A stretch of DNA of 64,000 bases, from contig JBAYVT010000005.1 of NCBI GenBank assembly GCA_041674405.1, positions 77,047 through 141,046 on the forward strand, in the 5' to 3' direction. The DNA comes from Patescibacteria group bacterium. Lineage in GTDB: Bacteria; Patescibacteriota; UBA1384; XYA2-FULL-43-10. How positions within the stretch are numbered: position 1 is the stretch's first letter; each line of letters starts with the position of its first letter. Shown here one piece after another: positions 20,636 to 63,822 of this stretch. The notes under the pieces were generated by a model. The model saw nothing but the letters and a program-made list of their open reading frames with translations, did not search any database and was not told the origin of the DNA. The translations under genes were made by a program, and so were the position numbers.

Positions 20636-20749
20636 CGCAGACTAATTATACCAAACTATAAAATAAAAATCAGTTTTTGTCGTATAAACGCAGCAACTCC
20701 CACAGACTGGCTGCGGGAGTTGGAGATCTGCCGTTCCCCGGAGGGAACA

Positions 20750-21277
20750 TTACGGCGCGTAGCTGGGGGGAGTGAGATGGCCAGCAATGGTCGTCCCGTT
20801 GTTCGTAGTGACGATGTCACCCTCCGCGGCGAAGTTGGCGGCGAGGCACGCCGCCGCGCCGTCTACCGAGATGTGGTTGCCGTCCATGGCGACCACCTCC
20901 ATCCACCAGGAGCCCTCCTCGTACTGCATCAGAAGATAGGGCTGGGTGCCCTGGCCCAGGTCCAGACTCCGAAGAGCCAGAGACAGGATCTCCTGGCTAG
21001 GCCGGATAGGGACCGACCCGACCTCGACATCGGCAGTGTTGTAGACCTTGATCTGGCCGTTGCCGGTCCCGTCGCGGGACATGGTCAAGTACGTGATGCC
21101 ATCGCCGCTGTCGAGGCGAGCGATGTTGCCCAAGCCGTCTGTGGCCCACTTCACACCCGCCGTCGGGAAGGCCGGGTCCACGCTTCCGCCTCCGCCACCA
21201 CCACAACCAGTCGAGATGAGGATCGCCACCAACATGGCGACCAGTCCGACCAACAACATCCATTTGCGCATGTTCAT
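20750..21277 (-). CDS. High-GC orphan lipoprotein-like protein (start ambiguous: Met at 21304, 21277 or 21271)
   Basis: Signal peptide MRKWMLLVGLVAMLVAILISTGCGGGGGG followed by a G/T/D-rich domain. GC is far above the flanks. The antisense 247-aa ORF is Arg-rich and looks spurious. Confidence 0.5.
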   Translation of the reverse strand: MNMRKWMLLVGLVAMLVAILISTGCGGGGGGSVDPAFPTAGVKWATDGLGNIARLDSGDGITYLTMSRDGTGNGQIKVYNTADVEVGSVPIRPSQEILSLALRSLDLGQGTQPYLLMQYEEGSWWMEVVAMDGNHISVDGAAACLAANFAAEGDIVTTNNGTTIAGHLTPPSYAP

Positions 21278-21540
21278 CACCTGTTCCAGGAGTTCGTACA
21301 CCATGTGGCGGCATACGTATTACAGCGCCATCAAACTAGCATATATTCAGCAATTTGTCAATAATAGATAATTATTTTCTGCCGTTATGCTACCGGCCAC
21401 AAAAAATTCTTCAGCCAAGCCAATCAAAAAATTTCCAACCATCTGGCTGGAAATTTTTTGTCAGACTTGCATACCTTTGTATATCCGAAACACAATGGAT
21501 AAGCATTGTGAAGTTGTTTTTAAAGCTACTTTATCCTAAT

Positions 21541-22257: not shown

Positions 22258-22474
22258 AAATTATTATTTAGGATATTGTTGGCTAATATAGTATCAGAAA
22301 CACAAGTTCAATTCCAGCCATTTTTTAATGACAAAATATCCAATCTGTAGGTGGATATCTTTGGCAATGTAAATATGCAAAGTTAGAACTTGTTATAATG
22401 CCGCATAATCAAAACGGCCGCCCCCGAAGAGGCGACCGTCTGATAATACACCGGAAACGCTCCGGCGCGACTCA

Positions 22475-23149
22475 CTAGCGAAGGCTGAGGTAGCCTTGCT
22501 TCAGTTGCTCGTGAGAGATGGTGATGGTGGCGTACAGCACCCGGTTCTCGTCGATCAGGCTTCCGGGATTCTCGAAGTTCCAGGACGGCAGCCAGAGCAA
22601 GTTGTCCACGTAGTACTTGAAGCGAACCACAGGGGGGCCTTGCTCGCTGGTCAGGACCTTCACCCTCTCCATCGGAAGAGAGCTAACGAAGGTTGGCACA
22701 TCTCCCCCGCTTTGGTTTTGGGGAAGCGACCAGCAGAAGACATAGCTGACTCCTGGCCGAGACTTTCCCTCGACGCTGCCCTCGACGTAGCCTCCGAGGA
22801 AATTGCCTCCCCCGCTTAGGCTTCCACTGAGGTCAGACTTCTGGCCTTTGCTCACCAGCGGGTTGAAGACCAGTGGATGGGGCCCGAGCAGATGGTATCT
22901 CTCCAACTGCCCAATGTTCCACTTCACCCATCCAGTATCTCTGGCAGACTTCTCTCTGGCCCGCTTGATGGCAGAGTCATAGAGTTCGAAGTTACCTATC
23001 CGTGGGTTAAAGCTTCGTTCCCAGAAGTAGTCGGGCGTGTCGAGCCTGACTTTCAGCCAAGACTTGTCCGCGGGAGTCAGCCCCTTGGAGCAGCCTACAA
23101 CTGACACACCTACCAACAGAACCAACAACACGACAGCGATCTTTCGCAT
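22475..23149 (-). CDS. High-GC orphan lipoprotein
   Basis: 224 aa. MRKIAVVLLVLLVGVSVVGCSKG is a signal peptide plus lipobox (VVGC). SD AGGAAGG upstream. A GC-rich hairpin plus T-tract follows at 22411-22440. Confidence 0.55.
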   Translation of the reverse strand: MRKIAVVLLVLLVGVSVVGCSKGLTPADKSWLKVRLDTPDYFWERSFNPRIGNFELYDSAIKRAREKSARDTGWVKWNIGQLERYHLLGPHPLVFNPLVSKGQKSDLSGSLSGGGNFLGGYVEGSVEGKSRPGVSYVFCWSLPQNQSGGDVPTFVSSLPMERVKVLTSEQGPPVVRFKYYVDNLLWLPSWNFENPGSLIDENRVLYATITISHEQLKQGYLSLR

Positions 23150-23271
23150 CTTGATCGTCCCTTCCTGGATATCGGTCTAGATTTGTGTTTCAGAGCTTAA
23201 ACACAATAACACAATATTACAAATATGTCAATTATTAACTTCATTGAAGTTATATAAATATAGAACTCAAC

Positions 23272-24744: not shown

Positions 24745-24946
24745 AAAATCACTAGTCCCAGACTAGCAATCTTTTGGCATGGGCTAGAGGAGGATCTCAC
24801 GTCGGCTATTCGCCTCCCTGGATACCCTCGGTTTCCGGCTCCTTCCGACATCGGGAGACCAAATGTTCTCCCGACCCCACTTTGTTCGACTCCTCTAAAA
24901 ACCAAAAGCCATCCCGCATAGTCAATCTTTGATTGGCGACGTGGGA
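24745..24946 (-). ncRNA. Candidate structured ncRNA, or long structured 3' extension of tRNA-Trp, ending in an intrinsic terminator
   Basis: GC-rich relative to the flanks. Nested hairpins: TAGAGGAG/CTCCTCTA closing stem, GTCGGGAGA-acatttgg-TCTCCCGA, GTCGG...CCGAC. Terminator CTAGTC-tggg-GACTAG plus T6 at 24745-24770. Only Arg/Pro-rich short ORFs overlap it. Confidence 0.4.
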
Positions 24947-25019
24947 TGGCAGGGGCTAGAGGAGTCGAACCTCTGACTAGGGTTTTGGAGACCCCTATTA
25001 TACCGTTTAACTAAGCCCC
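24947..25019 (-). tRNA. tRNA-Trp (anticodon CCA)
   Basis: Sense GGGGCTTAG...GGGGT-CTCCAAA-ACCCT...AGAGG-TTCGACT-CCTCT-AGCCCC-T-GCCA. Anticodon loop CUCCAAA; encoded CCA end. Confidence 0.85.
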
Positions 25020-25104
25020 TAAATGAGTCGTAAGCCCATAAAGTTGAGAGTCTATAAAGTAATTCAACAACTTTATGGACTTTAAAAACTTTACAGACTT
25101 TTGA

Positions 25105-25272
25105 CTACTTTGTTTCTTTATGTAACGTTGATTTTTTGCACTTTTTGCAATATTTTTTAAGCTCGATCCTTTTGATCACATCTTGGCCTTTTAGCCTTTT
25201 TTCAGTGTGATGGCCGCGCTCTTTGCAGACTTCACATTCAAGCGTTACAATTGTTCTTGCATCTTTTGCCAT
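25105..25272 (-). CDS. rpmG: 50S ribosomal protein L33
   Basis: 55 aa from an internal Met: MAKDARTIVTLECEVCKERGHHTEKRLKGQDVIKRIELKKYCKKCKKSTLHKETK (CxxC...CxxC zinc ribbon). SD AAAGGAAAT upstream. The 95-aa track ORF is an upstream extension through tRNA trailer sequence. Confidence 0.85.
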   Translation of the reverse strand: MAKDARTIVTLECEVCKERGHHTEKRLKGQDVIKRIELKKYCKKCKKSTLHKETK

Positions 25273-25383
25273 AATTTCCTTTCGAATATTTCGATTGATT
25301 TTATTATTGAGGCTCCTCGACAGGCTCGGAGTCATTCGACTCATCTGGTTTACCATGAGCGAACAGCTTTGTTGTGAGTCGAA

Positions 25384-25458
25384 TGGAGCCACCTGTCGGA
25401 TTTGGACCGACGACCTACTGTTTACAAAACAGTTGCTCTACCACTGAGCTAAGGTGGC
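25384..25458 (-). tRNA. tRNA-Thr (anticodon UGU)
   Basis: Sense GCCACCT-TA-GCTC-AGTGGTA-GAGC-A-ACTGT-TTTGTAA-ACAGT-AGGTC-GTCGG-TCCAAAT-CCGAC-AGGTGGC-T-CCA. Confidence 0.8.
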
Positions 25459-25459
25459 A

Positions 25460-25546
25460 TGGTGCTGAGAGCAGGATTCGAACCTGCGAAGGCCGGAGGC
25501 CGACAGATTTACAGTCTGTTGCGTTTGACCGCTTCGCTATCTCAGC
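25460..25546 (-). tRNA. tRNA-Tyr (anticodon GUA), class II with long variable arm
   Basis: Sense GCTGAGA...ACAGA-CTGTAAA-TCTGT; variable arm CGGCC-TCC-GGCC; GCAGG-TTCGAAT-CCTGC-TCTCAGC-A-CCA. Confidence 0.85.
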
Positions 25547-25702
25547 AAGATATTAATTTGTAGGCTCCTCGACAAGACCCAACGGGTAGCCATTGGCTCC
25601 TTCGGCTCGGGTCTCGGAGTCATTCGACTCATATGTTTTACTGTGAGCATGTCGCTTTATTGAATGGTTTACCATGAGCGAGGAAAGGAATGACGGGTCG
25701 AA

Positions 25703-25780
25703 TGGAGCCGTTGAGCGGACTTATTCCCTCGACCTACTCCTTACCATGCCTGTCCGCCTCTGGCGGAGAGTTGCCCCCAC
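25703..25780 (-). pseudogene. Degenerate tRNA-Thr(GGU)-like copy (pseudo-tRNA) fused to a structured trailer
   Basis: The sense strand retains ...CATGGTAAGG...AGGTCGAGGG...GGCTCCA, colinear with the adjacent tRNA-Thr(GGU), but the acceptor, anticodon and T stems no longer pair. Confidence 0.45.
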
Positions 25781-25783
25781 CGA

Positions 25784-25859
25784 TGGAGCCGACATCGGGA
25801 ATCGGACCCGAGACCTCATCCTTACCATGGATGCGCTCTACCAACTGAGCTATATCGGC
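25784..25859 (-). tRNA. tRNA-Thr (anticodon GGU)
   Basis: Sense GCCGATA-TA-GCTC-AGTTGGTA-GAGC-G-CATCC-ATGGTAA-GGATG-AGGTC-TCGGG-TCCGATT-CCCGA-TGTCGGC-T-CCA. Confidence 0.8.
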
Positions 25860-25980
25860 ATACATCGGCCGGGGTAAATCTACCAAACCCTAAGGGTCCC
25901 CTTTGGGGCTGAGCCACAACGGCACAATAAATACAAAAATAACATTGAAATTATACCGCAAAATCCTCTCTTTGGCAACC

Positions 25981-39060: not shown

Positions 39061-39085
39061 AAAAGCGGCAAAAAGCCGCTTTTGT
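39061..39085. terminator. Bidirectional intrinsic terminator between the convergent PBP1A and radA genes
   Basis: AAAAGCGGC-aaaaa-GCCGCTTTT, a perfect stem flanked by A and T runs. Confidence 0.75.
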
Positions 39086-52982: not shown

Positions 52983-54341
52983 CTATTTTAATTTTCCGCA
53001 AATATGTTCTGTAACTTTATCAATGGCGACCCGCTCCTGTTTCATTGTGTCGCGATCGCGAATTGTGACTGAATTGTCTTTTAAGGAATCAAAATCAACC
53101 GTCACGCACCAAGGGGTCCCGATCTCATCCTGCCTTCTATACCTTCGACCAACCGAGCCTGATTCGTCATAAAACACATTGAGCCCTGCGGCCTTAAGCT
53201 CATCCGATATCTTCTTGGCAACCTCTGGAAGCCCCTCTTTCTTCATGAGTGGGAAAACGGCAACTTTCACCGGTGCTAGCTTGGGGTGCAAACGTAGGGT
53301 CACCTCGCCGGATTCGCGGCCATCCGATCCATCGGATTCATCATAGGCATCACAAAGGAAGGCGAGCAGTGCCCGGTCAATTCCCATCGAAGGCTCAACT
53401 ACATACGGAATGAAGCGTTTGCCGCCTTGTTCATCGAAATACGAAAGATCTGTGCCTGAGAACTTTGTGTGTTGTGAAAGATCGAAATCAGTTCGCTGGG
53501 CAATCCCGGCAAGCTCAGATTGGCCAAACGGATATTTATATTCGATATCAGACGTGCCGATCGAGTAATGCGACAGCTTCTCCTTCGGGTGTTCGTATAT
53601 AGCTAAATTGTCCTCTTTGATGCCGAGATCGGTGTAGAAATGTTTTACCGCATCGATCCAGGTAGTGTACCACTTTTTAGATTCCTCTTTGTCAGGCGTG
53701 ATGAAATACTCTATTTCAGCCTGCTCGAACTCACGCGTACGGAAAATATAGTTGCCAGGCGTGATTTCGTTCCTAAAAGCCTTTCCGATCTGGGCGATAC
53801 CGAATGGGATTTTTTTTCTCGACGATTCAGTCACGTTTTTGAAGTTGACGAATATACCCTGGGCAGTCTCACCACGCAGATATGTGAGGGTAGAGCTGTC
53901 TTCTACAGGACCCAGGAATGTCTTTACGAGAATATTGAAACTCTTCTCCTCTGTAAGCTCGCCGCCGCAATCCGGGCAAACGTCTTTCTCGAGCTGATCG
54001 GCTCGGAATCTGTGATGGCACTTTTTGCACTCACGAAGAGGATCGGTGAAGCCTGATCCTGTGTGACCAGAAGCCTCCCAAACCTTCGCATTCATGATTA
54101 TACCTGCATCGAGACCGACCATATCTTCGCGTGAAGTGACAAATTTCCTCCACCATTCGTCTTTCAGATTCCGCTTCATCTCCACGCCCAAGGGGCCAAA
54201 GTCGTACACTCCGCCGATTCCGCCATATATCTCGGAAGATTGGAATATAAATCCCCTTCTCTTGCAGAGCGAAATGATCTTATCCATTTTATCTCGAGAA
54301 GCGTCAGCGACGAGAGACGATTCCATATTTTCTTTGGCCAT
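52983..54341 (-). CDS. glyQS: Glycine--tRNA ligase (alpha2 type)
   Basis: 452 aa. The N-terminus ...IISLCKRRGFIFQSSEIYGGIGGVYDFGPLG is the GlyQS signature. Confidence 0.85.
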   Translation of the reverse strand: MAKENMESSLVADASRDKMDKIISLCKRRGFIFQSSEIYGGIGGVYDFGPLGVEMKRNLKDEWWRKFVTSREDMVGLDAGIIMNAKVWEASGHTGSGFTDPLRECKKCHHRFRADQLEKDVCPDCGGELTEEKSFNILVKTFLGPVEDSSTLTYLRGETAQGIFVNFKNVTESSRKKIPFGIAQIGKAFRNEITPGNYIFRTREFEQAEIEYFITPDKEESKKWYTTWIDAVKHFYTDLGIKEDNLAIYEHPKEKLSHYSIGTSDIEYKYPFGQSELAGIAQRTDFDLSQHTKFSGTDLSYFDEQGGKRFIPYVVEPSMGIDRALLAFLCDAYDESDGSDGRESGEVTLRLHPKLAPVKVAVFPLMKKEGLPEVAKKISDELKAAGLNVFYDESGSVGRRYRRQDEIGTPWCVTVDFDSLKDNSVTIRDRDTMKQERVAIDKVTEHICGKLK

Positions 54342-54493
54342 TTTAGGTCCTTTTGCTATTTCTAGATTCAGAATATCATTTTATTGCCAAATTCACAATC
54401 TATAGCTATTTACCTTGACTATTTGCCGGTTTTATGATATCGTGCTTACGCACCCATAGGGTGACTACTGAATTGCCAAGGAGGCAAACCGCT

Positions 54494-55378
54494 ATGCCAG
54501 TTAAAACGTCGCACCTCAGAACCCCGTACGTCAGGCAGTTTCTCCAAGCGTTCGACATGGACCTCGGGTTACTAGATGACCTCGAGGCACTCGTCGAAGC
54601 CTGCTCGAGCCGCAACAAGCGCTTCGAGAGGGGCATGGACAAGGTCCGCTTCGAGTTCGAGCGGGACCAGTCCAAGTGGAATCAGTCCCAGTTGGATGCT
54701 ATCTTCACGCTCTCCGAGCGTTGGAGAATGCGCCATGGGGAGACTCCCTTCAAGGAAGGGTCTTCCTACGACTTGATCGTTACTATGGGCGGAGCCAGAC
54801 TCTCTCCGTGGCAGCGCGGTGCCTATGCCGCCTTGGCAATGTCCGAGGGTCGTGTGAAGGCTAGTACCTTGGTCATCGGCGGATCCAAACGGCACCTGCC
54901 GATGGCAGAGCTTCCGTTCATCACCGACTACGTCGATGTTGAGCGGCTGGTGTCCGAACGCAACCACCAGACCTTCTTGGTCGGCGGCGAAGAGAAATCG
55001 TGCATCACTGAGCATGACCTCTGCCTGGCCGCAGAAGCCAAGCTCGTGAAGGCTCATCCCGATCTCCACATCGTCACGATCTGCGTAGACATGGAGAGGG
55101 CGGGCAACCACGATGTCATCGCTGAGGTCATGAACCACAAGGAGCTCTTCCACTCCGACCGCGCACTATCCGTGGCTGGTGTGTCCACTCAGCTCTACGC
55201 GACCGGCCTGGACGCTGACCTCTGGCTGGACGCCGACACGCATGACTGGCGATACTACTCCGCAATCGGCCACCCGGTCGACCCGATCTACTCCGACCGC
55301 CGCACTCCGACCGTGTACTTCAACGAAATTCAGACGACCATGTGCAAGAAGGCACTGGCCGAGCTCAAGGGCTACTAG
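54494..55378 (+). CDS. High-GC orphan DUF218/YdcF(SanA)-like protein
   Basis: Start preferred at MPVKTSHL, preceded by CCAAGGAGGCaaaccgctATG. The ...DLIVTMGGARLSPWQRGAYAALAMSEGRVKASTLVIGGS...EEKSCITEHDLC... pattern resembles the DUF218 core. GC is far above the flanks. Confidence 0.5.
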   Translation: MPVKTSHLRTPYVRQFLQAFDMDLGLLDDLEALVEACSSRNKRFERGMDKVRFEFERDQSKWNQSQLDAIFTLSERWRMRHGETPFKEGSSYDLIVTMGGARLSPWQRGAYAALAMSEGRVKASTLVIGGSKRHLPMAELPFITDYVDVERLVSERNHQTFLVGGEEKSCITEHDLCLAAEAKLVKAHPDLHIVTICVDMERAGNHDVIAEVMNHKELFHSDRALSVAGVSTQLYATGLDADLWLDADTHDWRYYSAIGHPVDPIYSDRRTPTVYFNEIQTTMCKKALAELKGY

Positions 55379-55430
55379 CCCACAACTTACTGAGATCCGC
55401 CTAGTGGCGGATAATGACTCTACCGCCGCA

Positions 55431-55465
55431 GGCGAGTCCCACTCCGGGGCTCGCCTGTTGCATTT
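55431..55465 (+). terminator. GC-rich hairpin terminator after the high-GC DUF218-like gene
   Basis: GGCGAGTCCC-actcc-GGGGCTCGCC followed by TGTTGCATTTTAT. It is preceded by a second hairpin TCCGCC-tagt-GGCGGA (55396-55411). Confidence 0.5.
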
Positions 55466-55520
55466 TATCGTCGAACAATCGACGATCGTTCATTTTTCGA
55501 CGATGATCAAATATAAAAAA

Positions 55521-56258
55521 TTATTTCACATTATTCAAAAATTTTTTGCTTTTTAAATTCTTTTCCAAAATAGTTCGTATATACTCATCCAAAATTTGGT
55601 CTATTTCTTGCTCGATACTCTTGTCGAGCTTTAGTTTGCCAATGGTTTCAAAATCATTTTTCTCGATAAACCGCAGCGCTTTTATAAATTCGTTCGATAT
55701 TTTTGTACCCCGACTGGTCGGGGCACAATTCTTGCAGATTACTCCGCCCTCTAAATTGTCCCAATAGTTCTCCCCTTCGGTGATTTTTTCTTTGCAGTTT
55801 ACACACTCATAAAACTCCGGCTGAAATCCTGCTGTTTCAATAAGTTTAAGGGCAAAGGCATTGATCAAAAAGTTCTTTTCATTTTTCTCGATAAGATCGA
55901 GAATTTGCGCGAGAATTTTGTAAGTTTGCTCTGATTTTTCGTTTTCATGCAGAAAATTATCGACAAGTTCGCCGGCTACATAGGCCTTCGCCATTTTGGG
56001 AAGATCGCAGTGCAATTTTGAAAATTCAGAAATAATTTCCGCGCCGGTGATTGTATAAAAAGTTTTGCCCTCATAAAGCTGAAAATCGACAACCATAAAT
56101 GGCTCCAGGTGGCCGCCAAGCCTGGATGTGGATTTTCGGACTCCGCGCGAAATCGCCTTCACCTTACCAAATCGCTCCGTTAAAATCGTCAAAATACGAT
56201 CGGCTTCGCCAAAATTCATACGTTTTATTACGATTCCATTTGTTCTATATGAGTTCAT
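55521..56258 (-). CDS. recO: DNA repair protein RecO
   Basis: Start preferred at MNSYRTNGIVIKRMNFGEADRILT..., overlapping the upstream stop (ATGA). C-terminal zinc-binding Cys pairs are present. Confidence 0.8.
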   Translation of the reverse strand: MNSYRTNGIVIKRMNFGEADRILTILTERFGKVKAISRGVRKSTSRLGGHLEPFMVVDFQLYEGKTFYTITGAEIISEFSKLHCDLPKMAKAYVAGELVDNFLHENEKSEQTYKILAQILDLIEKNEKNFLINAFALKLIETAGFQPEFYECVNCKEKITEGENYWDNLEGGVICKNCAPTSRGTKISNEFIKALRFIEKNDFETIGKLKLDKSIEQEIDQILDEYIRTILEKNLKSKKFLNNVK

Positions 56259-57031
56259 TTTTGAATCGAAATATTTGAATATACAGCATAGGGCTTGTGG
56301 GATAACGTAGCCCACATCTGATCACCGAAAGAATAGTGCCACCACTCGGTAGGGTTATTTACAAACCCTTCTCCAAGCATCACCCAATACAAAAGCCGGC
56401 GATTTTCTCTGAATTCTATTTGTTCAGAATCTTCAATTTCTAATTTTTCCAAGAAATCAGTGAAAACCGACTCTTCCATTTCATCAAATTTTGCTCCCAT
56501 ATTGAGAAATTCTTTCGAGCCGATTTTACATAAAGTTAGATCAACAGCAGCACCAGTGGTATGCGGCGGCGGCGATTTCGGGTCAACTTCCCATGTTCCA
56601 TTCTTGTTCACGTAAGCCCAAAAATTATTAACTTCGTTTTTAATTTTTTCTTCTGACCAATCCTGATGTAATTTTTTGAAATGATGCGGTGCCCACTCAT
56701 CGTGCATAAATTTCTGCACCTCCGGCGGCCGGTATGTGTCGCGAACAAAAAGCTCGACTCCGGCTGGTTTTAATTCCTGATTTATTTTGACTAATTTATC
56801 CGCAACAGTTTTTCGAGCAAAAAGATTTGGTATCGCACCTAAGACCCTGCCGCCATCATCAAGTTTGAAATTGAAGTAATAATTTTCACCGGCGATGCCA
56901 AGTGTTAGAAGATCAACCACATCATCATCTTCTGGCTTGATAGGCAAATCTCTATAACCAAACTTTTGATTTCGAATATCATCAAGATTTGGTATCGGCG
57001 TATTTTTGAATTTTTCAATTTTTTGATTCAT
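56255..57031 (-). CDS. ddpX: D-alanyl-D-alanine dipeptidase (VanX/DdpX, peptidase M15D)
   Basis: 258 aa. Zn-binding and catalytic motifs ...PPHTTGAAVDLTL... and EWWHY. Confidence 0.75.
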   Translation of the reverse strand: MNQKIEKFKNTPIPNLDDIRNQKFGYRDLPIKPEDDDVVDLLTLGIAGENYYFNFKLDDGGRVLGAIPNLFARKTVADKLVKINQELKPAGVELFVRDTYRPPEVQKFMHDEWAPHHFKKLHQDWSEEKIKNEVNNFWAYVNKNGTWEVDPKSPPPHTTGAAVDLTLCKIGSKEFLNMGAKFDEMEESVFTDFLEKLEIEDSEQIEFRENRRLLYWVMLGEGFVNNPTEWWHYSFGDQMWATLSHKPYAVYSNISIQK

Positions 57032-57036
57032 GTGCC

Positions 57037-57786
57037 TTAGTTCTTAATTCTGGATGTTAAAACATTTTCCACTTGTTGTAGTTGTTCTGGTGTGTTTATG
57101 CCGAGAACTTCGGTTTCGTCGGCAATTTTTACCGCACTGATTTTTTTGCCCTGATCTTTAGCCATTTTTATGACATCCGTAAGGTAATATTCACCTTGCG
57201 TATTGTTGGTTTTAATATTTGCTAGATTTTTCCAAAGCCAGAGAGAGTCGAAAACATAAAAAGCCGGATTGCATTCTGTGGTTTTTAGCTGTTCTTCATC
57301 GCAATCTTTGTGTTCAATAATTGCATCAACGTTACCTTCAGTGTTTCGAATTATCCTGCCGTAGCCTGTCGGGTCAGAGTATTCCACGGTAAGCATTGCG
57401 ATCGTTGGTTTTTCATTTGTGTATAGATCGATGAGATTTTTGATCGTTTCGGGTTTGAATAATGGGGCATCGCCGCAACAAACTATGACCGCATCCGATT
57501 TGCCTTCCAGATTTACTCGCGCAGACATTGTCGCATGGCCAGTGCCGAGCTGTTCTTCCTGTACTGCATACTCAACCTGGTCTTTAAAATAATCGCGGAC
57601 AATTTCTTGTTTATATCCCACAACAAGAACAATTTTCTTAAGGCCAGCATCGCATAACGATTGAATCAAATAACTTACTACCGGTTTACCATTCGCCTTA
57701 AACATGACTTTTGGGATTTCTGATCCATTTTCGCTACCCATGCGTTTCCCCTTCCCTGCCGCGAGCACAACTGCTGCAATTTCCAT
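57037..57786 (-). CDS. Sugar-phosphate nucleotidyltransferase (GlmU N-terminal-like NTP transferase)
   Basis: 249 aa. AAVVLAAGKGKRM glycine-rich loop. There is no left-handed beta-helix domain. Confidence 0.65.
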   Translation of the reverse strand: MEIAAVVLAAGKGKRMGSENGSEIPKVMFKANGKPVVSYLIQSLCDAGLKKIVLVVGYKQEIVRDYFKDQVEYAVQEEQLGTGHATMSARVNLEGKSDAVIVCCGDAPLFKPETIKNLIDLYTNEKPTIAMLTVEYSDPTGYGRIIRNTEGNVDAIIEHKDCDEEQLKTTECNPAFYVFDSLWLWKNLANIKTNNTQGEYYLTDVIKMAKDQGKKISAVKIADETEVLGINTPEQLQQVENVLTSRIKN

Positions 57787-57814
57787 TTTGATTTCCTTTC
57801 AATTATTCATGCCC

Positions 57815-57823
57815 ATTATATCA
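57815..57823 (-). promoter_or_regulatory. Extended -10 element (TGATATAAT) for the nucleotidyltransferase gene
   Basis: Minus sense: GGGCCCaattcTGATATAATgggcatgaataattgaaaggaaatcaaaATG. It lies immediately downstream of the palindrome GGGCCCCGAC-tatt-GTCGGGGCCC (57829-57852). Confidence 0.4.
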
Positions 57824-57989
57824 GAATTGGGCCCCGACTATTGTCGGGGCCCTGTGCTCTCCTCCTCTCTCGGCGGAGGATCACCGAGCCAATACGCGAA
57901 TGGCGGCTCGGCCAGTGGGTCATCTTTGAGTATCTCGGCCCAGGTTGTCTTCTCTTCGTTTGTCATCGCTCTCATGATTTCGACACTCC

Positions 57990-58220
57990 TTAGCAAGACA
58001 GATGTTGCCAGCGGCCAGTGCCGTCAGCGTACGAACGCATGCACTTTCCATGGCCACAGCCGATTTCTCCGCATGCAACGCACCTTTTGAGGCTATTGCG
58101 CTCTCTGCCAGTTTTCTTGGACGGAGCATGTAAACCCGCGTCACAGTGGGGGCATTTTCCCCCGTTCGCGGTGATTCTCCAGCTGCGGTTCCTTCTGTTC
58201 TGACGCTTGCTTGTCGCCAT
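57990..58220 (-). CDS. High-GC orphan zinc-ribbon miniprotein
   Basis: 76 aa with CPHC-x18-CVAC and a further ...CGHGKC. SD AAGGAGGccaggATG. Alternative-frame ORFs are low-complexity and treated as spurious. Confidence 0.45.
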   Translation of the reverse strand: MATSKRQNRRNRSWRITANGGKCPHCDAGLHAPSKKTGRERNSLKRCVACGEIGCGHGKCMRSYADGTGRWQHLSC

Positions 58221-58284
58221 CCTGGCCTCCTTGGCTGTTTGGTTTCGAAAAGCTTAACCGGTTTAAGCCCTTCGAGCCAAAAAC

Positions 58285-58312
58285 AAAAAACCGCCCTAGT
58301 GGCGGCCTTTTG
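58285..58312 (-). terminator. Intrinsic terminator of the CYTH-domain gene
   Basis: Minus sense: AAAAGGCCGCC-acta-GGGCGGTTTTTTGTTTTT. The stem sequence is near-identical to the hairpin at 55396-55411. Confidence 0.6.
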
Positions 58313-58410
58313 AAAAATATTTTTAAATCAAATTAAATAAGCCGCCGAGTAGTCGGAATAAGTAGATTGACTTGAATTGCGCGGCATTTGATATTCATAT
58401 TGAGTTGATA

Positions 58411-58902
58411 TTACCCTTTATTCATATAGTTTGCAATATCGGCAAACTTCTTGCCGGCTAGCGATTGGTTGGTTGCCCAGTCCTCTTCGGTAACTTCTCT
58501 CCCAAACCATTTTGGTTTTTCAAACGACTTGGCAGTTTCTTCGTCTGTAGTCGACACCTCGATCAGTGCCAAACCGTCAAGATCGCCTTCAAACTCATCA
58601 ATCATTATCTCAAGGCTGGGATCATCTTTGTATGCATATCTTTTCTTTTTAATGGTTTTCGTCACCACTTTCCAGATTCGGTCAAACTCTTCCTTGTTGA
58701 TTTCAACTTCAAATTCTTCCCTGTATCGCTTATCGCCAGGGATCGCCATCAATTTTCTGGTGATAAAAAACTTGTCTCCAATTTTTCGGACACGTGTGGC
58801 ATCCTCAGCATTTGAAAGGTAGCCCTGCTCTATCTCTGATGATTTTAGTTTGCCAAGTTCCGGTAATTCCGTTGCCAAATAGGTCGATTCGATGTTAATC
58901 AT
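58411..58902 (-). CDS. CYTH-domain protein (triphosphate tunnel metalloenzyme-like)
   Basis: 163 aa. The N-terminal IESTYLATELPE resembles the ExExK motif of CYTH, and acidic residues alternate through the beta strands. Confidence 0.45.
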   Translation of the reverse strand: MINIESTYLATELPELGKLKSSEIEQGYLSNAEDATRVRKIGDKFFITRKLMAIPGDKRYREEFEVEINKEEFDRIWKVVTKTIKKKRYAYKDDPSLEIMIDEFEGDLDGLALIEVSTTDEETAKSFEKPKWFGREVTEEDWATNQSLAGKKFADIANYMNKG

Positions 58903-58909
58903 GTTCCTC

Positions 58910-59644
58910 CTAATTTGTATTCTTAAAATTCAATCTCTTTGAAGTAGCTTCAAACTCGCCTGCAATATCATCGGTTAGTAATCTTGCATTAATCATATCT
59001 CGCACAGCATGCAAATAGTGATCAAAAACATCCGCGTCGTAAAGTCTAACTTCATGATCGCCGAGATTTTTGATTTTCCAGCCGCTGTTGGCGTAGTGGC
59101 TTAGCTCCAATGTTCTTACTTGGAGTAAAGATAAGTTTCTGACCAGCCCCTGGATTGCCTGCTCGCAAAGTTCGGCGAGTACGATTTTCGGTTTGATAAT
59201 CTGTTCCGTTTTTACCGACAAAAGTTTCTCGTACCGTTCCACAAATCCGGCGATATCCGATTTTTTTAATTTGCCGTCCCTGAGAAGAAATTTAATTCTC
59301 TTCAATAAATCATGCTGACCCTGGGTTAGGGTAAATGCTCCAACAAGTAATTCACGGGGAACTTCTGTTTCGGAATTGATAGGGTAGTAACCATGTTGCT
59401 CGTTCTTATAACGATTTATCCAACCGACTATCTCTCGTTTTTGCTCATCAAATTTGATGTCGCTGTCTTTTGCTACCCGGAAGCAACCGTCATCCTTATA
59501 AACAAAGATCCCACCACCGATCCCTGAATAGGGCAAGGTCATTTCCGGATTGGTCGAGAAGGTTGCTCGACCGTCGATAATTGAAAGGCCGTCATTGACT
59601 ATTCGTTCAATAGCAGCCTTTTTTGTTCCGTGAAAATAAAGCAT
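58910..59644 (-). CDS. Hypothetical protein
   Basis: 244 aa, long intact ORF with no motif recognised by eye. Confidence 0.4.
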   Translation of the reverse strand: MLYFHGTKKAAIERIVNDGLSIIDGRATFSTNPEMTLPYSGIGGGIFVYKDDGCFRVAKDSDIKFDEQKREIVGWINRYKNEQHGYYPINSETEVPRELLVGAFTLTQGQHDLLKRIKFLLRDGKLKKSDIAGFVERYEKLLSVKTEQIIKPKIVLAELCEQAIQGLVRNLSLLQVRTLELSHYANSGWKIKNLGDHEVRLYDADVFDHYLHAVRDMINARLLTDDIAGEFEATSKRLNFKNTN

Positions 59645-63792: not shown

Positions 63793-63822
63793 AAAATGCC
63801 CCCTAGGGGGCATTTTTTTATC
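63793..63822. terminator. Bidirectional intrinsic terminator
   Basis: AAAAAATGCCCCC-ta-GGGGGCATTTTTTTAT. It serves the micro-ORF (plus) and the convergent minus-strand membrane-protein gene. Confidence 0.75.

Follow-up and report, generated by a model that had tools for sequence, protein, structure and literature searches.

A Shine-Dalgarno Context and a Hairpin Shared by Two GC-Rich Islands of a Patescibacterial Chromosome Are Probably Ordinary Expression Signals

Two GC-rich islands, numbered 3 and 4, share an identical Shine-Dalgarno (SD) context and a near-identical CCGCC...GGCGG hairpin in a 64-kb stretch of contig JBAYVT010000005.1 (positions 77,047 to 141,046) from a Patescibacteria group bacterium. 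A preliminary description of this stretch, hereafter referred to as the window or W, took the resemblance to point to a common source, to a common cassette-like insertion mechanism, or to contaminant or engineered DNA. We conclude that the shared SD context and hairpin are probably ordinary expression signals and that their resemblance reflects convergence plus chance. Islands 3 and 4 would accordingly be accessory transcription units that are self-contained and unrelated to one another, located in the chromosome of a member of the Candidate Phyla Radiation (CPR) and each arranged as a sigma-70-type promoter region, a structured leader, a full-consensus SD, a GC-rich open reading frame (ORF), and GC-clamp stem-loops at the ends.

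The background GC content of the window is 0.40 (sd of 0.06 in 200-nt windows), and GC content exceeds 0.57 in five stretches: 20651-21351, 22351-23201, a tRNA cluster at ~25.3-25.9 kb, 54401-55501, and 57701-58301. The last two correspond to islands 3 and 4, where the contrast is sharp (0.58-0.63 versus 0.40). Genes of islands 3 and 4 have GC contents of 0.59 and 0.56-0.58, respectively, when compared to 0.39-0.48 among neighboring genes, and the GC content at third codon positions (GC3) is 0.78 in island 3, 0.61 in island 4, and 0.36-0.53 among neighbors. All motif counts refer to the window, and designations such as L001 and L088 denote contigs of relatives. The DNA of relatives comprised short contigs with few close relatives, and one fragment of glycyl-tRNA synthetase (GlyRS) served as the yardstick of relatedness. 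A contig scan with the neighboring dipeptidase yielded a closest relative that was only 48% identical, and no close relative of the genome was detected in that scan.

Distribution of the Shared Sequences

The 10-mer CCAAGGAGGC is present exactly twice in the window (54476-54485 on the forward strand and 58225-58234 on the reverse strand; 0.12 occurrences expected from shuffles), each time upstream of the ATG of a GC-rich ORF. The placement of the 10-mer ahead of both genes is as the preliminary description reported, except that the spacing of 5-7 nt given there was measured here as 8 nt in island 3 (ATG at 54494) and 4 nt in island 4 (ATG at 58220). Counted from the last G of AAGGAGG, the distances to the ATG are 9 and 5 nt, respectively, and both ORFs encode conserved proteins. 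AAGGAGG is complementary to CCUCCUU, a generic 16S rRNA 3′ end that may not be that of this host, and this consensus accounts for seven of the ten shared bases. We interpret the 10-mer as a consensus ribosome-binding site plus three flanking bases, in which C and G residues around AAGGAGG would allow a small local hairpin to form. In island 3, these residues are present because the SD sits in a mini-hairpin, TTGCC-AAGGA-GGCAA (54473-54487, forward strand). The mini-hairpin was identified in five copies of the leader, with the form TCGCC-A(A)GGA-GGCGA in L087, L089, L171, and L172. More generally, (CC/TC)A(A)GGAGGC(G) is conserved 5-9 nt ahead of the start codon in island 3 leaders. Since the leader is shared by nine copies, the SD context of island 3 is an ancestral trait of its gene family. 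At island 4, only the SD core is conserved (CCAAGGAGGCc in the window; CCAAGGAGGaaag, i.e., CCAAGGAGGaa, in L001; and aatGGAGGta in L092).

Matches to CCGCC(N0-1)TAGTGGCGG are also limited to two in the window, where shuffles predict 0.00. These are CCGCCTAGTGGCGG at 55397-55410 and CCGCCCTAGTGGCGG at 58291-58305, both at the border of a GC-rich stretch. The earlier report of two near-identical copies at island edges is upheld, although its positions were off by 1-3 nt. The two copies are on opposite strands. The island 3 hairpin is 3′ of a gene on the forward strand, 19 nt past the stop codon, and the island 4 hairpin is 5′ of a gene on the reverse strand, ~60 nt upstream of the SD. As RNA, the island 3 hairpin reads AUCCGCC-UAGU-GGCGGAU and is without a U-tract; the island 4 hairpin reads GGCCGCC-ACUAG-GGCGG and is followed by UUUUUUGUUUUU (U6GU5).

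Perfect 5-bp stems comprising only G and C, with a loop of 3-6 nt, form 11 hairpins in the window. Among these, CCGCC (n = 3) and GCCCC (n = 3) recur, which results in six same-stem pairs, and CCGCC/GGCGG may thus be regarded as one of the two commonest stems of this type. The naive shuffle test overstates the significance of the shared hairpin because only 11 all-G/C hairpins are present and three of them have a CCGCC/GGCGG stem. We put the probability that at least one same-stem pair has a 4-nt loop in common at roughly 0.07, a rough and post hoc figure based on about three registers per pair. Native terminators share the style of an A-run, an all-GC stem, and a T-run (e.g., caaaaGCGGCAAAAAGCCGCttttg at 39065 and aaaatGCCCCCTAGGGGGCatttt at 63798), and CCGCC...GGCGG hairpins were also identified in other contexts in relatives. 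At both sites, stems are retained in relatives and loops are not; the differing loops indicate that the near-identity of (C)TAGT is specific to this genome. Collectively, a common stem type and loops that coincide in this genome only suggest convergence plus chance rather than a common source or a mark of insertion.

Leader and 3′ Untranslated Region of Island 3

A promoter scan predicted a promoter at 54415-54443 (forward strand) that comprises a -35 element (TTGACT), a 17-nt spacer, and a TG-extended -10 element (TATCGT). A -35 element of the form CTTGAC(T/A/C) and an extended -10 of the form TGnTAnnnT were detected in 9/9 copies of the leader, two of which are in tandem in L090. At or near the predicted 5′ end of the mRNA is a stem-loop (CACCC-ATA-GGGTG; 54451-54463, forward strand) that is present in 9/9 leaders and nowhere else in the window. 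Its general form is (C)ACCC-loop-GGGT(G), and its second pair is A-U in six copies, G-C in two (CGTCC/GGGCG in gene 2 of L090 and CGCCC/GGGCG in L171), and G-U in one (L086). This amounts to two compensatory changes from A-U to G-C and one G-U intermediate. In L090, tandem GC-rich genes encode a 101-aa Cys-rich ORF (1250-1555) and an island 3 orthologue (1739-2560), each preceded by a separate copy of one module (promoter, leader hairpin, and GGAGGCG), which shows that this leader module was duplicated along with different ORFs. Long-range sequestering of the SD was also considered, given that a stretch of the coding sequence at 54826-54840 is complementary to the SD region (54472-54486) at 14/15 positions. 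This complementarity was found in no orthologue and is probably due to chance.

The hairpin shared with island 4 (ATCCGCC-TAGT-GGCGGAT; 55395-55412, forward strand) would be the first of two stem-loops in the 3′ untranslated region (UTR) of island 3, with a probable role in 3′-end protection or processing. It does not qualify as a terminator, as its ATCCGCC/GGCGGAT stem is followed by AATGACTCTACC. Rather, a terminator scan predicted an intrinsic terminator downstream at 55428-55468 (forward strand), with a 13-bp stem followed by TTGCATTTTAT; the interval 55428-55458 alone comprises 13 pairs and then TGCATTTTAT. The 95-nt 3′ UTR folds with z = -6.8. In the closest relative at this locus, L088 (93% amino acid and 81% nucleotide identity across the GlyRS N-terminus), the corresponding sequence is gagatCCGCC-CTTGT-GGCGGataa, as compared to gagatCCGCC-TAGT-GGCGGataa in the window, and the same terminator is next. 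A 99-nt region at 55370-55466 is 82% identical to L088 1419-1516. In other orthologues, a different hairpin occupies this position and is followed by a terminator.

Two further observations concern these 3′ UTRs. A short single-stranded segment, ACUCUACCGC, separates the two hairpins and is likewise conserved, and the 3′ UTRs of L086 (1482-1567) and L090 (2551-2640) are 91% identical, which is above the identity of the neighboring gene (74% at the nucleotide level). The 3′ UTR of island 3 could be a source of a 3′-UTR-derived small RNA or could serve as a recombination anchor.

The Island 3 Protein Family and Its Locus

The island 3 gene (54494-55378, forward strand) encodes a 294-aa protein that is identical to the hypothetical protein WC080_04300 [Patescibacteria group bacterium] at NCBI, which is encoded on a 395,669-bp contig of a metagenome-assembled genome. 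A word-indexed search matched only the protein itself, whereas an exhaustive HMMER search identified 54 distant homologues (25-38% identity). The family is small, comprising 54 clusters among 1.84 billion representatives, and none of these are from cultured organisms. Homologues align over their full length and have invariant Arg, Glu, Thr, and Tyr positions. The AlphaFold model of the protein is confident (predicted local distance difference test score of 92) and exhibits a YdcF-like alpha/beta fold. In Pfam, the protein is without a match and does not reach the gathering score of PF02698, although DUF218 is weakly matched by 8/30 family members (best E = 0.00097). The likeness to YdcF/DUF218 proteins (E. 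coli YdcF, PDB 3ca8) thus comprises these weak matches and the fold. However, the protein is only 7% identical in sequence to YdcF and has an additional N-terminal helical domain. E. coli YdcF binds SAM according to the title of the 3ca8 entry.

In seven further contigs, which derive from different samples, homologues of the island 3 protein (27-47% identity) adjoin GlyRS and/or RecO. With X denoting the homologue, the contig of P0005 has the order MraZ-GlyRS-X-RecO with X on the forward strand, exactly as in the window. L089 encodes GlyRS-X-RecO-NUDIX-NTP-transferase, L087 encodes X-(87 aa)-RecO-NTP-transferase, and GlyRS adjoins X in L088, L090, and L171. No relative was found with GlyRS directly next to RecO, and L095 holds other genes between them. 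All eight homologues for which DNA was available are GC-rich (8/8; GC of 0.55-0.61 and GC3 of 0.62-0.79) when compared to their flanking genes (GC of 0.36-0.47). The reverse case was observed in L083 (3040-5010), where a distant family member (P0020) and an adjacent TrmB-like gene have a GC content of 0.43-0.47 in a contig of 0.56-0.60. This suggests that the family also moves between lineages of differing GC content.

In the window, the genes that neighbor islands 3 and 4 are low-GC housekeeping genes, encoding MraZ, GlyRS, RecO, a D-Ala-D-Ala dipeptidase, an NTP-transferase, a CYTH-like protein, and Fpg. GlyRS (52983-54341) and RecO (55521-56261) flank island 3, and the NTP-transferase (57037-57786) and the CYTH-like protein (58411-58902) flank island 4, all on the reverse strand. 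The dcw-cluster/GlyRS/RecO region represents a bacterial chromosomal setting. GlyRS itself is intermediate in composition (GC of 0.48 and GC3 of 0.53), and its codon usage correlates weakly with that of native genes (r = 0.23) and that of the islands (r = 0.20).

Genes, Leader, and Terminator of Island 4

Island 4 comprises two ORFs on the reverse strand. Gene a (57990-58220; GC of 0.56) encodes a 76-aa Cys-rich (CxxC...CxxC) protein with a 74%-identical homologue in the Logan contigs L001 and L002, where the synteny is Fpg-CYTH-76aa-NTP-transferase. Every Cys of the protein is present in L001. Synonymous codon differences between W and L001 were observed at 31 of 56 conserved residues in gene a and at 72 of 137 in the neighboring CYTH gene. 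The synonymous differences in gene a indicate purifying selection, and the matching proportions indicate a real protein that diverged along with its neighbors. Gene a is GC-rich in L001 as well (0.57 versus 0.40-0.42 among neighbors). A third copy of island 4 was identified in L092, directly after Fpg, with 47% identity and a homologue of the second ORF. This second ORF, gene b (57838-57975; 45-52 aa), has a core of DPLxEPP...W, a tblastn match in L092, and a similar translated stretch in L001, and it is probably coding. A 244-aa ORF without a Pfam match (58910-59644, reverse strand; GC of 0.42) is located between Fpg and CYTH and is absent from the syntenic L001.

The second copy of the shared hairpin is 5′ of gene a (58284-58312, reverse strand). 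It has the form CAAAAGGCCGCC-ACTAG-GGCGGTTTTTTG followed by TTTTT, with 12 pairs before the T-run, and would be a Rho-independent terminator or an attenuator in the leader. In L001, where the 76-aa gene follows CYTH, and in L092, where it follows Fpg, a hairpin is found at the corresponding position ahead of this gene. Relatives without island 4 (L151, L094, and L095) lack this hairpin; in these, Fpg adjoins the NTP-transferase and CYTH is missing too. This joint presence and absence suggests that the hairpin is part of the island 4 unit, in which it would act as a 5′ terminator or attenuator. All three copies have the form AA(G)CCGCC-loop-GGCGG followed by T6-8, with loops of ACTAG in the window, CTGAA in L001, and GAGAA in L092.

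The leader has the same layout in W, L001, and L092: CGGCGG(C)TT, an AU-rich spacer, the terminator, a second hairpin, and the SD. The GGCGGCTT element (58339-58346, reverse strand), in which CGGCGG is invariant across the three, is complementary to the 5′ arm of the terminator. The two co-vary, with GGCGGCTT/AAGCCGCC (as RNA, GGCGGCUU/AAGCCGCC) in L001 and GGCGGTT/AACCGCC (as RNA, GGCGGUU/AACCGCC) in L092. This suggests that the upstream GGCGG(C)UU may be an antiterminator partner, with covariation that is thin across three sequences. The second leader hairpin (58244-58276, reverse strand) has an outer stem, GAAGG/UUUUC, that is retained and an inner stem, GCUUAA/UUAAGC, that is replaced by GCGU/ACGC in L092. 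At the opposite end, a 10-bp stem-loop that is 100% complementary, GGGCCCCGAC-AATA-GTCGGGGCCC (57829-57852, reverse strand), overlaps the stop codon of gene b. Stem-loops are in the same place in L001 (GGACCCCCGA-aacca-TCGGGGGTCC) and L092 (CCCGTCCGCC-gatc-GGCGGACGGG). The 143-nt leader folds with z = -3.9, and its counterparts are at 2140-2292 in L001 and 195-350 in L092. A promoter-like site, TTGACT-17-GATATT, at 58367-58395 on the forward strand has the -35 hexamer of the island 3 promoter; it points away from island 4, is antisense to CYTH, and may be due to chance.

Alternative Explanations for the Shared Sequences

The sharp GC contrast, the textbook consensus of the SD, and the absence of Pfam matches to proteins that are ORFans might suggest that the islands are contaminant, chimeric-assembly, or engineered DNA. 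However, the same genes, neighbors, leaders, and GC contrast were observed in independent assemblies from other samples, including those in Logan (SRR22315504, SRR31966183, SRR22388067, SRR29243425, SRR21359297, and SRR30681716), JGI (3300050015 and Ga0265297), and ENA (ERZ1426829 and ERZ27293347), and the island 3 family has invariant residues and a confident predicted fold. These independent, syntenic occurrences exclude contamination or engineering, and we consider an artifact to be extremely improbable. A common source for islands 3 and 4 is likewise not borne out. Their composition-normalized tetranucleotide signatures, the comparison that the preliminary description itself put forward, disagree (r = 0.11) and, by that criterion, refute it. 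Island 4 is closer to native DNA (r = 0.28; native DNA compared to itself, 0.34 ± 0.13), whereas islands 1, 2, and 3 resemble one another (r = 0.29-0.41) and are uncorrelated with native DNA (r of about 0). Relative synonymous codon usage yields a similar result, with islands 1, 2, and 3 alike (r = 0.57-0.61) and anticorrelated with native genes (r = -0.31 to -0.48), and island 4 weakly similar to islands 1-3 (r = 0.23-0.37). Islands 1-3 therefore share a codon and 4-mer signature that is not native. The same differing k-mer signatures argue against a single mobile mechanism having delivered both islands and left the hairpin at their border as an attC- or att-like recombination site. Such a mechanism would account for the location of the hairpins at island edges, for a hairpin at island 4 that is found only together with the island, and for the different GC-rich genes at the GlyRS-RecO site and upstream of the NTP-transferase, with an IS200-like Y1 transposase in one relative. 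Yet the hairpin is 3′ of one gene and 5′ of the other on opposite strands, with different predicted roles, and there is one motif copy per island rather than one per border. The loops vary in relatives while the islands recur, mostly beside the same neighbors. No direct or terminal inverted repeats and no target-site duplications were found flanking islands 3 and 4; one direct repeat flanking island 3, CATTTTAT, was dismissed as a duplication since its exact match is limited to eight bases in an AT-rich context. None of the island genes encodes an integrase and no integrase adjoins either island, a negative that covers the islands and their neighboring genes. In contrast to integron cassettes, both units have a predicted promoter of their own. 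We therefore regard a hairpin-marked insertion as improbable. The term cassette-like is appropriate in a looser sense, in that the islands are discrete, self-contained units (with their own predicted promoter, consensus SD, and bounding hairpins) at sites that hold other GC-rich genes or nothing in relatives.

An explanation that is functional and not historical would have the stem-loop serve as a site for one RNA-binding protein or RNase that co-regulates GC-rich accessory transcripts. This is compatible with stems that are constant at both sites in relatives while loops drift, with CCGCC...GGCGG at both ends of island 4 in L092, and with island 3 3′ UTRs that are conserved as well as or better than neighboring genes (82% versus 81% for GlyRS between W and L088; 91% versus 74% between L086 and L090). 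However, the first 3′ hairpin differs in the majority of island 3 orthologues, the hairpins of islands 1 and 2 are unrelated, CCGCC stems are also found within coding regions and a tRNA cluster, and the RNA loops differ (UAGU versus ACUAG). We consider a shared regulatory role to be unlikely, albeit the least so among these alternatives. Alternatively, one hairpin may recently have converted the other, or a small tract may have been copied between them within this genome, which could explain why the loop match is confined to this genome while the loops of relatives differ. But the tract would be only 14-15 nt and would include an indel, the flanks have nothing in common (gagat.../...ataat versus aaaaaa.../...cctttt), and chance is an adequate explanation. 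Thus, copying of this kind is about as hard to credit as hairpin-marked insertion, if not slightly more so.

Convergence plus chance remains the explanation that we favor, and several points weigh against it. An exact identity of 14/15 nt is expected 0.00 times by naive shuffling. Retention of the CCGCC/GGCGG stem at both sites in relatives makes a stem-specific function possible (e.g., as a protein-binding hairpin of GC-rich units), and L092 carries a third such stem at the 3′ end of its island 4. Moreover, each hairpin was compared with one or two relatives only, and the promoters, terminators, and attenuator are predictions. We likewise infer the roles of the hairpins in termination, attenuation, and mRNA stabilization from sequence.

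Persistent GC-Richness and Divergence of the Island Genes

The GC pattern of islands 3 and 4 is unlike that of a decaying foreign gene. Horizontal gene transfer so recent that amelioration has not taken place is disfavored for island 3, since nine deeply diverged and mostly syntenic copies are all GC-rich in AT-richer genomes. It is disfavored for island 4 as well, since GC3 is still ~0.6 in two lineages despite synonymous divergence that is equal to that of the neighboring CYTH gene. Translational selection was rejected as the cause of the high GC3 because the bias is general (fractions of A and T at third positions of 0.04-0.14 and 0.12-0.14, respectively) and is not limited to NNY codons.

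The coding sequence of island 3 diverges far more than its surroundings. Between W and L088, the gene is 34% identical at the amino acid level and cannot be aligned as DNA, while its 3′ UTR and GlyRS have the identities given above. Between L086 and L090, it is 41% identical at the amino acid level, compared to 77% for the neighboring gene, and island 3 identities do not follow GlyRS identities. The promoter, leader, and 3′ UTR, as predicted, thus appear to form a conserved 'frame' around a hyperdivergent ORF. The GC-rich genes lack matches in Pfam and PHROGs, including the lipoproteins of islands 1 and 2 and ORFs in L087, L089, L090, L095, and L171, whereas their low-GC neighbors are annotated. 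The sites are hot spots, in that they are occupied by different GC-rich genes in different relatives; for example, a different GC-rich gene is at the position of island 4 in L093. In place of the YdcF-like gene, the RecO-GlyRS interval of L095 (7080-8485) contains an IS200-like Y1 transposase (Pfam E = 1.8e-6) and a different, moderately GC-rich 172-aa ORFan that has its own predicted promoter, and the site acts as a hot spot.

Repeated replacement of island genes from an unseen GC-rich pool is possible. We advance more tentatively, as a minority view, that the GC-richness is not a fading trace of foreign origin and that these CPR bacteria harbor a class of hypervariable accessory genes in which it is actively maintained. 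Conserved UTRs might serve as recombination anchors for allele swapping from a GC-rich CPR gene pool, to which GC-biased gene conversion might add. Such conversion has been described to raise GC3 in recombining bacterial genes (PMC4450053). Alternatively, selection might favor GC-rich, highly structured, long-lived mRNAs that have a 5′ stem-loop, a consensus SD, and 3′ stem-loops. Reported differences due to GC-biased conversion are small and are far below the roughly 35 GC3 points of the islands. We found no description of persistent GC-rich islets in Patescibacteria in the literature.

Islands 1 (20690-21330) and 2 (22405-23165) are both on the reverse strand and carry one predicted lipoprotein gene each, with lipoboxes of ...STGC and ...VVGC, GC contents of 0.64 and 0.57, and GC3 of 0.82 and 0.72, respectively. 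Each has its own TTGACA promoter-like site and GC-rich terminator hairpin, and neither has Pfam, PHROG, or viral relatives, including in scans of viral contigs with their single proteins. Their codon and 4-mer signatures match those of island 3 and not those of native DNA. The tRNA cluster (24750-25950; Trp, Thr, Tyr, and Thr) contains a GC-rich, non-tRNA module twice (25297-25374 and 25549-25662; ~80% identical). A segment at 25697-25744, which was not called by ARAGORN or Rfam, has 71% identity to the 3′ portion of tRNA-Thr. The third CCGCC...GGCGG hairpin of the window is at 25754, in the region of this cluster. Across the window, Rfam yielded only tRNAs above the gathering threshold, and the window contains no rRNA gene.

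Comparison With Known Systems

Morons of phages are defined by one coding region with its own promoter and factor-independent terminator, located between conserved genes and deviant in composition (PMC4378225). They are the closest known concept to the island units, which have their own predicted promoter and terminator, deviate in composition, and are located between conserved genes. As with morons, the units are present, absent, or replaced among relatives, and no recombinase target is recognizable at their borders. Morons, however, reside in phages or prophages, whereas the island units are chromosomal and no PHROG, phage, plasmid, or viral-contig relatives were found; no matches were obtained when plasmids and phages were searched by tblastn with the island 3 protein, and the GC-rich genes of the window and of relatives had no match in PHROGs. 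In addition, the island 3 family stays at its locus across deep divergence and stays GC-rich, which counts against a recent acquisition.

Integron gene cassettes are also small units of one gene, with an element at one edge that can form a hairpin. They are promoterless and end in an attC of 55-140 nt that is always at the same end, whereas the island units have their own predicted promoter and a hairpin of 14-18 nt that is 3′ of one unit and 5′ of the other, with no adjacent integrase. Islands 3 and 4 are thus not integron or mobile cassettes as these are defined.

Among RNA elements, Rho-independent terminators combine a G+C stem with a U-run, as do 58312-58284 (reverse strand) and 55428-55468 (forward strand), whereas 55395-55412 is without a U-tract. 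In the island 4 leader, pairing of the conserved GGCGG(C)UU with the 5′ arm of the terminator would be possible, as in classical attenuators. In contrast to these, the leaders have no Rfam match, and neither an effector nor a leader peptide nor a conserved core resembling an aptamer was identified; the proposed antiterminator is deduced from three sequences. A search of 54300-58500 against Rfam at E <= 5, which covers the leaders and UTRs of both islands, returned nothing credible. A 5′ stem-loop and a strong SD reportedly stabilize mRNA in the aprE leader of B. subtilis and in the STAB-SD of B. thuringiensis cryIIIA. The island 3 family likewise has a short stem-loop at or close to the predicted 5′ end, next an AAGGAGG of consensus strength, and farther on the 3′ stem-loops; the likeness is one of architecture only, in a CPR host.

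Implications for Patescibacteria

The shared SD and hairpin are ordinary as such, and showing this removes the suspicion of contamination or engineering from a CPR assembly. What merits following up are small, self-contained ORFan units at fixed hot spots between housekeeping genes that, even at deep divergence, are markedly GC-richer than the genome and whose coding sequences diverge far faster than their UTRs. Composition-based detectors of horizontal gene transfer would label the island genes as recent transfers, with which synteny disagrees. Accessory and mobile DNA usually has a higher AT content than the host genome, and a persisting class of GC-rich accessory genes runs counter to this trend. 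If true, either of the mechanisms outlined above would represent an undescribed mode of accessory-gene evolution in Patescibacteria. If the pattern is genome-wide, it would offer a way to study how lineage-specific genes arise and are expressed in ultra-small symbionts.

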